From: a virus
Taxonomy: Duplodnaviria; Heunggongvirae; Uroviricota; Caudoviricetes
Virus record (IMG/VR): IMGVR_UViG_2654587772_000002
Direction: 5' to 3' (one strand)
Length of the DNA: 64,000 bases
A program made the translations under genes and the position numbers. The notes under the pieces are model-generated. The model was not told where the DNA came from, made no database searches, and saw only the letters and a list, made by a program, of their open reading frames with translations. Below are positions 4,765 to 7,700 of this stretch, in pieces; position 1 is the first letter of the stretch, and each line of letters opens with the position of its first letter.

Positions 4765-7700
4765 AAGAACTGTGCTATGGATCTGTTTGCAGTGGAATTG
4801 AAGCCGCGAGTATTGCCTGGGAACCGTTGGGTATGCGTCCGGCGTGGTTTGCTGAAATAGAGCCTTTTCCATCTGCCGTTCTTGCGCACCGCTGGCCCCA
4901 TGTCGCCAACCTTGGCGACATGACAAAACTCGCCCAAAAAGTCCAGGCTGGAGAAATTGAAGCCCCTGATGTGCTGGTGGGAGGGACACCATGTTTTACC
5001 GCGGGGCATATGGTTCTTTGTAAAAATGGTTATAAACCAATAGAAGATGTTTGCCCTGGCGATTACGTAGTCAGTCATCTCGGGCGGTTACAACAAGTAA
5101 AAAGAGTTGGTTCAAAAATAGCTAATACGGGGTTACTTAATGCCGTTGGGCAGCCTTTAGGTATAAGAACAACCAATGACCATCCCTTCCTGGCGGTTCG
5201 GTGGAAAGCCCAAAACACCCGGAAAAATGGCACATATTTTAAGAGAGAGTTGTTGTCTGAACCGGAATGGCGAGCAGCATGTGATATGCCGGGATATCAA
5301 TGGTGTGCTCTAACTAATTTCAATATTGCATCTCCAGATATTTGTTCTCGGTTCTTGTCTGAAGAACAGGCTATGTATCTTGCGGGCGCTTATGTTGGCG
5401 ATGGATATATTAGGAGATGGAAAGGTAAATCTAAGAAGGCGGTTGTTTTTGGCATAAATTGCCAGAAGTTGAGAAAGTTTCATTGCCGCATACCAGAAAA
5501 CATATTTTCCGTGGCAAGCGAAATCCGAGGGAGCATCAAAGTAACCTTGAATGATACGTGTTATGCCAATTGGCTTAATGAACATTTTGGCGAGTTAAGC
5601 CATGCTAAGCGTATCCCTGCATGGGTGATGTCGCATCCATTGCGTCATGTGTTTTTACAAGGCTATCTTGATACTGATGGGACACCAAGTGGTAAAGCGG
5701 GATTTAGAATTAATAGTGTTAGTCCTGCGCTTGCTTGGGGCGTTGCGGAGTTGTCACAGACTTGTGGTTATGTTTCTTCGGTCAGCTTTATTGAAGTTGA
5801 GCCCAAAAAAGTGATTGAGGATCGCGTGGTAAATCAACGGAATTATTATCAGGTAACAATCTGCCCGCAGAAATTGTCACGTAAATCAAGATTGGCTCAT
5901 GGAATGCTTTTACGAACAGTCAAAGAGTTTAAATCGGTAGGCCTAGATACTGTATACAACATAGAAGTCGAAGGTGATCATTCCTATATCCTCAATGGTG
6001 CGGTGGTCCATAACTGTCAGGCATTCAGTATCGCTGGATTACGTGGTGGGCTTGATGATGAGCGTGGCGCGCTAACTTTAAAGTATGTGGAGCTTGCAAA
6101 TGCAATTGACGACAAACGGGCTGAGTCATTTCTCAAACCATCCGTTATCGTCTGGGAAAATGTCCCAGGAGTCTTGTCATCGGCAGATAACGCCTTCGGA
6201 TGTTTCCTTGCCGGATTGGCTGGAGAAGATGCGCCATTTGAACCAGGTGATCGACCTGAATCAGGAAAAAGTAACGCGTTCTGGCGGTGGGATGTCAAAA
6301 CCGGTTGCCATGCTCCAAAGTGGCCGCAGTGTGGTTGTATTTATGGACCGCAGCGAAAAGTGGCCTGGAGAATCCTTGATGCCCAATACTTCGGAGTGGC
6401 ACAACGACGCCGACGCGTGTTTGTTGTCGCAAGTGCTCGAACAGACCTCGATCCCGCAACGGTACTTTTTGAGTTCGAAGGCGTGCGCCGGAATATTGCG
6501 CCGAGCCGAAAAAAGAAGGAAATCACTTCCGCCATTATTGCAAATGGCGCTGCAATCAGTGGCGAAAGCCTAAATCCATGCCTACACGCTGACATGCCAC
6601 CCGGTATGAAATCGACGAAAGCCGTAAACGCTTTCAGGATGGCAGCATTTGGGGAATATATTGACGATGAAACCGCATCGACAGTAAAGGCAAGAGATTT
6701 TAAAGATGCCACTGACCTTGCCGTTTTTAGCAGCACAGGAGCAGGTTTTTGGTCAGAAGGGCATGGTACATTGCGGGCACGTGAGCAAGAAAGCCATGAG
6801 CATCTTGTTACATTGGCTTTTCCTGAGCGTATGAGCGGTACACAACATGCTGCAACTAAGAATACTTCACCATCTCTAATGGCTAAAAATCCAACAGCTG
6901 TTTGCTATGAAGTAAGAAACGCAGAAGTAGCTGTCCGCCGTCTTACCCCTGTCGAATGTGAAAGGCTGCAAGGTTTTCCTGATGGGCATACGTTGATCCC
7001 GACGGAAAAGCGTAAAAAAGTTAATTCAGATGAACTGGCATATCTTCGCAATCACTATCCAGATTTAAGCGAAGAAGAGGCCGCGATGCTTGCAGCTGAC
7101 GGGCCGCGTTACAAAGCGATCGGCAATAGTATGGCAATACCAGTAATGCGCTGGATTGGCGATCGGATTACTAAGGCCGTATGTCGGCAGAAAGAAGGAA
7201 GTGAAACAAAAGAGCGAAAAGTTAAACCAGCGGCAGAATTCGAACGGTCCATATTCAAATGGGCTGGTGGAAAATTTGGTGTTCTGGAACAAATCTTTCG
7301 CTATTTGCCAGAAGGGAAGCGCCTGATTGAACCTTTCGTTGGTGGCGGAGCTGTCTTCATGAATGCCGGATACCAGGAAAATCTGCTAAATGATGTGAAT
7401 GCTGACCTGATTAACTTTTACAAGACTCTGCAACGCGAGGCGCATTCACTTATCACTCTGGCACATCGTTTCTTCCAGGACTACAACACACAGGAAGGAT
7501 ACCTGGCAGTACGGAATGCGTTTAACAAACAAGTCTATGATGATTTACATCGCGCAGCGGCGTTTTTGTTCCTGAACCGACATTGTTTTAACGGATTGAC
7601 GCGTTACAACCAGGCCGGTGAGTTCAATGTCGGTTATGGGAAGTATAAAACTCCGTATTTCCCATTGCAGGAGATGGAAGCCTTCCTTGGTGCGGAAGGG

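Follow-up and report, generated by a model that had tools for sequence, protein, structure and literature searches.

The window analysed here, a stretch of 64,000 nucleotides from the IMG/VR virus record IMGVR_UViG_2654587772_000002, carries the gene dmt of a P1-family (Punavirus) phage-plasmid. Its product, Dmt, is a bifunctional DNA methyltransferase in which a cytosine C5-methyltransferase domain is followed by a Dam-type N6-adenine methyltransferase domain. The dmt precursor gene (4761..8048, plus strand, as are all parts of it given below) starts with GTG and forms a single uninterrupted frame of 1095 residues. Within that frame the C5 domain is split by an insert of 341 residues (4992..6014, dmt codons 78-418) that divides motif IV into GGTP/CQAFS, where the slash marks the place of insertion. 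Both points had been made in a first-pass annotation of this DNA, and the translation and the flanks agree with it. The first 77 residues (N-extein, 4761..4991) hold motif I and the first half of motif IV, ending in VLVGGTP, and the last 677 (C-extein, 6015..8045) hold the remainder of the C5 domain (motifs IV to X, with a variable target-recognition region) and then the Dam domain. Very probably the insert is a canonical class-1 intein that has a LAGLIDADG homing endonuclease with two motifs nested within it, and it lies in frame between Pro77 and the catalytic motif-IV cysteine of Dmt.

A protein alignment of Dmt from the window, Escherichia phage RCS47, OP279344 and reference P1 shows that P1 Dmt, of 754 residues, lacks precisely these 341 residues and reads ..GTP/CQAFS... 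Subtracting the insert from the precursor (1095 - 341) leaves 754 residues, the predicted length of the processed protein and the actual length of intein-less reference P1 Dmt. At the level of DNA, the empty site reads ...CCT/TGTCAGGCATTC..., and the occupied allele reads ...CCA/TGTTTTACC...CATAAC/TGTCAGGCATTC.... The insert ends in VVHN directly before the +1 Cys (TGT, 6015..6017), which is invariant in the family, would act as the second splicing nucleophile, and would become Cys78 of mature Dmt. When Dmt was spliced in silico, its N-terminal domain aligned to residues 59-126 and 150-176 of M.HhaI with no gap across the junction, the alignment continuing through ENV and QxRxR. The +1 Cys falls on M.HhaI Cys81 (counted from chain residue 59), the catalytic nucleophile of M.HhaI, and so bears out the earlier assignment of this residue as the nucleophile of motif IV.

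C5-methyltransferase motifs I, IV, VI, VIII, IX and X are all intact in the exteins, with GGTP/CQAFS for motif IV, VWENVPG for motif VI (ENV) and QRRRRVFVV for motif VIII (QxRxR). The C5-methyltransferase model PF00145 matches in three stretches (E = 1.2e-29). The dcm superfamily model TIGR00675 from NCBIfam, scored on the intein-interrupted precursor, reaches 97.4 bits against a cut-off of 100.65, a shortfall plausibly caused by that interruption. The Dam domain is recognized by PF02086 (E = 2e-56, residues 834-1066, about 7260-7958) and by TIGR00571 (E = 7e-74). It lies entirely inside the C-extein; in the precursor, the physical break affects the C5 active site alone.

Splicing blocks, endonuclease motifs and predicted fold

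Splicing blocks A, B, F and G and two LAGLIDADG motifs are all present in the translation, as the first-pass annotation proposed. Block A (4992..5030) opens with the Cys1 nucleophile (TGT, 4992-4994); across the family alignment, Cys1, Phe2, Gly5 and Gly13 never vary. Block B (5172..5183) has the TxxH form, Thr61-Asn-Asp-His64, with Thr61 and His64 invariant. The nested LAGLIDADG (DOD) homing-endonuclease domain (5349..5861, roughly residues 120-290) is recognized by its PF14528 match, by its fold and by the alpha/beta secondary structure of a structural model. It contains LAGLIDADG motif 1, LAGAYVGDG (5379..5405, residues 130-138, acidic Asp137), in which Gly132, Asp137 and Gly138 are invariant; the invariant Lys206 (5607-5609); and motif 2, LQGYLDTDG (5655..5681, residues 222-230, acidic Asp229), in which Gly224 and Gly230 are invariant. 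Blocks F and G (5946..6014), identified by a match to TIGR01443 and by alignment to the Spl DnaX mini-intein, include invariant Val321, Asn323, Val326 and Asn341, and the intein ends NGAVVHN, that is, in His340-Asn341. GC content is 42.8% in the intein and 54.5% and 49.2% in the flanking exteins. No in-frame internal start with a Shine-Dalgarno-like sequence, from which the endonuclease might be expressed independently, occurs in the first 136 codons of the intein.

Checked against intein profiles, as had been suggested for this insert, the region shows clear homology to inteins in both sequence and fold. LAGLIDADG_3 (PF14528, Pfam) matches at 36.6 bits, where its gathering score is 22.5 (E = 5.7e-9); the NCBIfam model intein_Cterm (TIGR01443) reaches 30.8 bits, its cut-off being 15.6 (E = 2.4e-7); and the Pfam model Hint_2 recognizes the intein N-terminus at 28.5 bits against a gathering score of 28.4 (E = 2.3e-6). 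Weaker NCBIfam matches are to the intein portions of models for intein-containing ribonucleotide reductase (RNR), GyrA, DnaB, RFC and RtcB, and the sole match in PHROGs is the intein part of an NrdD family. Searching PDB sequences with the intein alone gives weak alignments: residues 300-341 pair with the C-terminal end of the Spl DnaX mini-intein, and residues 124-259 with PI-PkoII.

An AlphaFold2 model of the intein, built from an alignment of 13 sequences, has a mean predicted local distance difference test score (pLDDT) of 92.0 and a predicted template modelling score (pTM) of 0.89. The modelled termini are beta-rich and surround an alpha/beta core at about residues 124-257, and the model conforms to the HINT fold. 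When it was compared with the PDB by Foldseek, the top 16 structures were all homing-endonuclease inteins, with PI-SceI first (2e-16) and TliVMA, PhoVMA, PI-PfuI and PI-PkoII also among them; there were fold matches to the endonuclease domains of PI-SceI, PI-PfuI and PI-PkoII as well. Lower ranks hold free-standing LAGLIDADG enzymes (I-DmoI, I-SceI and I-OnuI-type) and mini-inteins (Prp8, DnaB). The bacterial intein-like (BIL) domain 2lwy is a marginal match, at E = 0.91 by PDB sequence and at rank 34 by Foldseek, and the nested LAGLIDADG domain, the HN/C junction and the position inside a catalytic motif are all out of keeping with a BIL domain, a type of Hint domain that has neither a nested endonuclease nor the canonical C-terminal HN-plus-nucleophile junction and usually resides in variable proteins that are not conserved. 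Taken together, the LAGLIDADG_3, TIGR01443 and Hint_2 matches and the fold match to PI-SceI constitute an intein signal well beyond chance.

Across relatives of 29-52% identity, the invariant residues include Cys1, Phe2, Gly5, Thr61, His64, Gly132, Asp137, Gly138, Lys206, Gly224, Gly230, Asn341 and Cys+1, while Asp229 and Asp329 are at least 90% conserved. The penultimate His is the only key residue of the intein that varies among these relatives (H, N, K, A, S or R). This conserved set is the one that defines class-1 splicing chemistry together with the LAGLIDADG active site, and it is for this reason that we regard the element as a canonical homing-endonuclease intein. From the conservation of these residues, and from the population patterns described below, we infer that the intein splices and that its endonuclease is active.

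The motif-IV lineage and its known relatives

Relatives were sought by a profile scan of IMG/VR and by running phmmer exhaustively over 1.84 billion cluster representatives (50% identity). The IMG/VR scan returned 53 relatives on non-P1 viral contigs, giant-virus bins (GVMAG) among them, at 27-55% identity, and all 53 are inserted at xP/C...HN/C[QNKT]x[FLY]S, where square brackets enclose alternative residues. The phmmer search gave 4,540 matches at E no greater than 1e-3, 1,639 at 1e-10 and 192 at 1e-30. Among the 140 full-length top representatives from phmmer, each of which has the N-terminal Cys, 127 sit at [PE]/C...N/C; CxxxS continues after the junction in 126 of these 127, and ENV (motif VI) follows within 110 residues in 111 of the 118 with enough downstream sequence. 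The remaining few lie in other exteins, including multi-intein proteins. By these comparisons of sequence, the Dmt intein is a member of a large, site-specific C5-methyltransferase motif-IV lineage of phages, bacteria and giant viruses, with at least 127 clusters at 50% identity dedicated to the Pro/Cys site of C5-methyltransferases, from phages to giant-virus bins. Some sources name such relatives "Hint domain-containing protein" or "DOD-type homing endonuclease".

Inteins at the same site, among them those of Mannheimia haemolytica (P0011), Bacteroidia (P0014), phage contigs (L129-L146) and giant-virus bins (L160-L178), share xP/C...HN/CQxxS, a length of 320-370 residues and 29-57% identity with the Dmt intein. 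They differ from it in that their hosts are diverse and mostly monofunctional, several have decayed, and K, S, R or N stands in for the penultimate His in some. On the GVMAG contigs (L160, L166-L168, L170, L171, L173-L176 and L178), the inteins occupy the motif-IV P/C site as GFP/C...HN/CQGFS at 27-31% identity, which suggests a lineage extending from phages to nucleocytoplasmic large DNA viruses. In the M. haemolytica cluster, found on 578 contigs (L141/L142, ~3523-3585), an intact intein is followed by the C-extein CQSDKGGTVKASGGGFEWRE and then a stop, and the methyltransferase is therefore truncated right behind the intein. In Rodentibacter (P0025), a reading frame annotated "DNA cytosine methyltransferase" begins within the final ~50 residues of what is left of an intein.

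Among inteins of known structure, the best matches (E from 2e-16 to 8e-9, at sequence identities of only 11-17%) are PI-SceI of yeast VMA1 and the archaeal inteins TliVMA, PhoVMA, PI-PfuI and PI-PkoII, which have in common with the Dmt intein a HINT splicing domain that accommodates a nested LAGLIDADG endonuclease between its blocks B and F. They also share Cys1, TxxH, the terminal HN, the +1 Cys and insertion at an active-site motif of the host protein. The Dmt intein is smaller (341 residues against 360-540), lacks an obvious extra DNA-recognition region, and resides in a DNA methyltransferase on a phage-plasmid, whereas the hosts in the PI-SceI and archaeal group are an ATPase, a polymerase or RNR.

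Inteins have been described in several phage methylases. C-5 methylase (IPR001525) is listed among "previously reported" actinophage intein hosts in one survey (bioRxiv 10.1101/2025.01.02.630785), where these inteins are of the class-1/LAGLIDADG type and their hosts, like Dmt, are phage C5-methyltransferases. The survey is confined to actinophages (bioRxiv 10.1101/2025.01.02.630785). Its C-5 methylase inteins may or may not form one lineage with the Dmt intein. Actinobacterial relatives found here (P0019, P0020 and P0022, 29-31% identity) occupy an equivalent SPE/C site. In contrast to the actinophage C-5 methylase inteins, the Dmt intein is found on an enterobacterial phage-plasmid and in a bifunctional C5 plus Dam protein. 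Inteins are also known in N6/N4 DNA methylases of mycobacteriophages (DNMT-1/2, PMC5050341) and in the actinophage methylase family of Dorothy_75 (PMC9957025). These resemble the Dmt intein as LAGLIDADG inteins at conserved sites of orphan phage methylases, patchy in occurrence and with evidence of transfer between diverged host genes (PMC5050341, PMC9957025), but they differ in the fold class and motif of the host (N6_N4_Mtase, PF01555), in their insertion sites, and in that they show no sharing of a catalytic nucleophile between intein and host enzyme.

A full-text literature search, with many subscription papers outside its reach, returned no intein in the Dmt of P1, P7 or RCS47. Nor did it return the motif-IV site as a dedicated intein allele, the C5 lineage appearing in the searchable literature only as an entry in the actinophage list. 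Papers joining "intein" and "P1" concerned only split-Cre tools, RNR inteins and toxin-intein constructs. The Dmt intein is therefore apparently new, or at least unannotated, and apparently undescribed. It is a known type of element, with no new mechanism, and its architecture would not surprise an intein specialist.

Distribution and variation among P1-like elements

We surveyed 5,426 complete E. coli genomes for the intein DNA and, with a probe spanning the empty junction, for uninterrupted dmt. Intein DNA is present in 152 of them, over its whole length and at 95-100% identity, with 148 of 153 places on plasmids. The junction probe finds dmt in 492 genomes, uninterrupted in 337, so that ~31% of alleles are occupied. 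The first-pass annotation had held that its reading would fail if close relatives carried the same 341 residues as a normal part of the methyltransferase; what is seen instead is presence/absence polymorphism, at ~337 empty to 152 occupied E. coli genomes. In PLSDB, 133 plasmids bear the intein, 118 of them from Escherichia coli, fergusonii or albertii, 14 from Salmonella and one from Shigella. The word "intein" is absent from the annotations among the matches listed, wherever a feature underlies the match; names seen are "Dam family site-specific DNA-(adenine-N6)-methyltransferase", "DNA methyltransferase", "Dmt" and "DNA cytosine methyltransferase". Intein-bearing dmt genes should be annotated as intein-containing.

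At least two copies are decayed. The copy on E. coli plasmid NZ_CP027223.1 (35242-36263) aligns over 1022 of 1023 nucleotides in a gene annotated as two features, which suggests a frameshift, and E. fergusonii plasmid NZ_CP099329.1 (52102-52603) keeps only intein nucleotides 1-502, with no annotated gene. A 100%-identical intein occurs in a chromosome assembly, NZ_CP007394.1 (E. coli ST2747 "chromosome", 9080-12000), where truncated tape-measure and baseplate pseudogenes directly follow dmt, unlike the P1-syntenic window; this locus is either a P1-like element that has been rearranged or is defective, or an artefact of the assembly. In OP279344.1 (1501-4542, host MG1655 Z1), which was submitted under the name "Escherichia phage P1 isolate del res del mod", dmt has the intein together with a target-recognition region that differs. 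We considered it as an intein gain within a laboratory lineage and rejected that idea, its flanks differing from reference P1 by 1-2% throughout. It represents a different P1 lineage, and "P1" stocks in use are therefore not all of the Lobocka reference lineage at dmt.

The window's dmt matches those of Escherichia phage RCS47 (98.5% identity) and vB_EcoM-Ro157c2YLVW (98.4%) over its whole length; reference P1 (AF234172/NC_005856) aligns over only 68% of the gene. Downstream of dmt, the window keeps the gene order of P1. The presumed target-recognition region of the C5 domain (~6510-6930, Dmt residues ~583-725) is cassette-like: the Dmt of OP279344, 1013 residues long, has a shorter unrelated segment there. 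P7, SJ46 and MH445380-type phages match only 56% of dmt. These cassette differences and partial matches show dmt to be mosaic independently of the intein.

Variation was compared across IMG/VR loci, 27 occupied and 71 with an empty site. Thirty sampled intein copies comprise 15 DNA alleles and 12 protein alleles, with no stops and no indels. The 29 polymorphic sites (14 synonymous, 15 non-synonymous) include none at a catalytic residue, and the splicing residues Cys1, Thr61, His64, Asp329, His340, Asn341 and Cys+1 are intact in all 30 copies. The ratio of non-synonymous to synonymous polymorphism (pN/pS) is 0.30 for the whole intein; taken by domain, it is 0.13 for splicing and 0.61 for the endonuclease, a difference that amounts to a trend only (Fisher p = 0.066).

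Intein copies are ~99% identical to one another yet sit on diverged extein backgrounds. Nucleotide diversity among occupied alleles comes to 0.0057 for the intein and 0.006 for the opening 100 nucleotides of the C-extein, as against 0.039 over the 231-nucleotide N-extein and 0.057 over its last 100 nucleotides. The N-extein is unusually diverse (92-95% identity between alleles), while hrdC, immediately upstream of it, is ~99% conserved, like the intein; the N-extein haplotype of the window is a minority type. The intein occurs together with three or more haplotypes of the N-extein and several of the C-extein, and the breakpoints, which differ, lie within ~130 nucleotides. The Pro codon at position -1 is perfectly associated with intein presence (CCA against the synonymous CCT), and a proximal tract, CTG GTG GGA GGG ACA CCA, occurs in five of 28 occupied alleles, the window included, and in no empty allele. 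Association between flanking alleles and the intein is moderate to about -118 and +160 nucleotides and absent farther out. Low intein diversity, variable flanks and decaying linkage are consistent with the prediction of homing with variable co-conversion tracts, and judging by these patterns ongoing homing is likely.

Reference P1 (mod749::IS5 c1.100) has TGG, encoding Trp74, three codons before the catalytic Cys, giving WGTPCQ (AF234172, L001 1720-1722; window equivalent 4980-4982). Gly occupies this position (GGTPCQ) in each of the 71 other empty-site alleles and in every intein-bearing allele, and Trp74 looks like a substitution specific to the reference P1 lineage. It might influence C5 activity or recognition by the endonuclease. 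Because reference P1 lacks the intein and also has this unique Gly74Trp next to the catalytic Cys, it may not represent the Dmt family.

Expression, splicing and homing

The window is 100% identical to annotated P1 over 3460-3590, where the C1 repressor operator Odmt (3494-3510, plus strand) and the sigma-70 promoter Pdmt of the uhr-hrdC-dmt operon (3510-3539, plus strand), both assigned by identity to annotated P1, are intact. Since Pdmt and Odmt drive uhr-hrdC-dmt, they also control expression of the intein and its endonuclease. In P1, dmt is a lytic-cycle gene under C1 repression (PMC4713147). On C1 derepression, transcription of uhr-hrdC-dmt from Pdmt would lead to a precursor with a calculated mass of 121.7 kDa. 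Processing is expected to follow the standard chemistry of class-1 inteins. Cys1 would carry out an N-to-S acyl shift at the Pro77-Cys1 bond, the thioester would transfer to the +1 Cys, cyclisation of Asn341 would release the intein-endonuclease (38.3 kDa), and an S-to-N shift would give Dmt of 83.4 kDa with its GGTPCQAFS active site restored.

Until splicing took place, the C5 active site would stay split while the downstream Dam domain would be whole. The first-pass annotation had methylation as such depend on splicing. A case for this can be made for the C5 half alone, where we infer such a dependence; the Dam half (residues 834-1066) lies wholly in the C-extein, where it may work in the unspliced precursor. 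The freed intein would then cut an intein-less dmt (...GGG GGW ACR CCT/TGT CAG GCA TTC...) when two P1-type genomes share a cell, and repair from the occupied copy would copy in the intein together with short flanking tracts. Expression being lytic, any cutting would fall in the period when phage genomes replicate and recombine.

Several observations weigh against parts of this account. The Hint_2 match barely reaches its threshold, and Intein_splicing (PF14890) falls below its gathering score, with 22.1 bits against 35.8; the nested endonuclease interrupts the PF14890 model, and Hint_2 and TIGR01443 do pass. The P1 annotation gives C5-methylation by P1 Dmt only as "perhaps". The higher pN/pS of the endonuclease domain, though not significantly so, leaves room for a decaying endonuclease. 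No empty allele has the intein-type proximal flank, and neither a recent invasion nor a precise loss has been caught. Lastly, a single old insertion with ordinary homologous recombination would give a similar population pattern, and homologous recombination is frequent in P1-like elements.

The alternative that fares best is one that we regard as possible but decidedly less probable than not: the intein splices, its endonuclease is inactive or weak, and its distribution reflects one ancient invasion, vertical descent and ordinary recombination among P1-like plasmids rather than ongoing homing. The endonuclease domain does contain 11 of the 15 non-synonymous polymorphisms, alongside its pN/pS of 0.61 against 0.13, although that contrast falls short of significance. 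The private N-extein variants at -22, -48, -104 and -118 are common to most occupied alleles, as for a single founder haplotype, and the otherwise mosaic make-up of dmt, with its cassette-like target-recognition region, shows recombination there to be frequent whatever the endonuclease does. However, both LAGLIDADG motifs and residues Asp137, Asp229 and Lys206 are intact in every sampled copy; of these three residues, Asp137 and Lys206 never vary among relatives of 29-52% identity, Asp229 being conserved in at least 90%. Diversity in the intein is also ~7-fold below that of the adjacent N-extein, and the breakpoints cluster within ~160 nucleotides of the insertion.

A more elaborate reading would give the intein two functions of its own. 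With the C5 active site alone interrupted and the Dam domain left whole, splicing could serve as a post-translational switch in P1 lytic growth, with immediate Dam activity and delayed cytosine methylation, perhaps set by redox state through Cys1 and Cys+1 or by timing after induction. The released endonuclease could in addition act as a weapon against intein-less P1-type rivals in co-resident or superinfected cells, by analogy with marker exclusion through homing endonucleases of T-even phages. We consider this combined proposal speculative and rather unlikely.

Less likely still is a splicing-dead relic that permanently inactivates the C5 half, leaving a 122-kDa protein that is a Dam methylase only, as P1 needs for pac packaging. 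Dam activity, carried by an uninterrupted domain in the C-extein, is the sole Dmt function with a documented role, being required for packaging at pac sites in dam- hosts (PMC12707154), and the C5 activity has just the hesitant annotation mentioned above. Some relatives have decayed as well, as in the truncated C-extein of Mannheimia and the one apparently frameshifted E. coli copy. A dead insert of 1 kb would be expected to show lesions, however, and the 30 sampled copies retain every splicing residue without a stop or an indel; the splicing-domain pN/pS of 0.13 indicates strong purifying selection, and the exteins keep C5 motifs I, IV, VI, VIII, IX and X. Finally, the notion that the 341 residues are no intein at all, being instead either an accessory or DNA-binding domain integral to a longer variant of the methyltransferase or a BIL Hint domain with a non-splicing role, can draw on the coverage of non-intein Hint domains by the Hint_2 model and on 2lwy among the weak matches, but it is highly improbable given close Dmt relatives (about 98% DNA identity across dmt) that precisely lack the insert, its splitting of the catalytic PC dipeptide, a terminal HN followed by Cys plus a nested endonuclease as in the best structural matches (PI-SceI-type inteins), and the difficulty of reconciling a domain between Pro and the catalytic Cys with the C5-methyltransferase fold.

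Read as a homing-endonuclease intein, the insert brings such an element into a well-studied setting. P1 is a classic workhorse of genetics, and P1-like phage-plasmids are important carriers of resistance genes. As a natural intein and homing system in E. coli, dmt combines the existence of both occupied and empty alleles with an inducible promoter that is already known and with a simple read-out. With the catalytic Cys of the host enzyme as its +1 nucleophile, the element would also provide a ready-made splicing-dependent methyltransferase switch.

Two long minus-strand open reading frames, 4372-4992 and 4419-5078 (206 and 219 residues), overlap the end of hrdC, the start of dmt and the N-junction of the intein. 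Downstream of dmt lie tRNA genes of the P1 type, tRNA-Asn (8725-8800) and tRNA-Thr (8803-8878), and ARAGORN also calls a tRNA-Ser (tga) at 9353-9439 and a tRNA-Met/Ile-type gene (cat) at 10403-10478.

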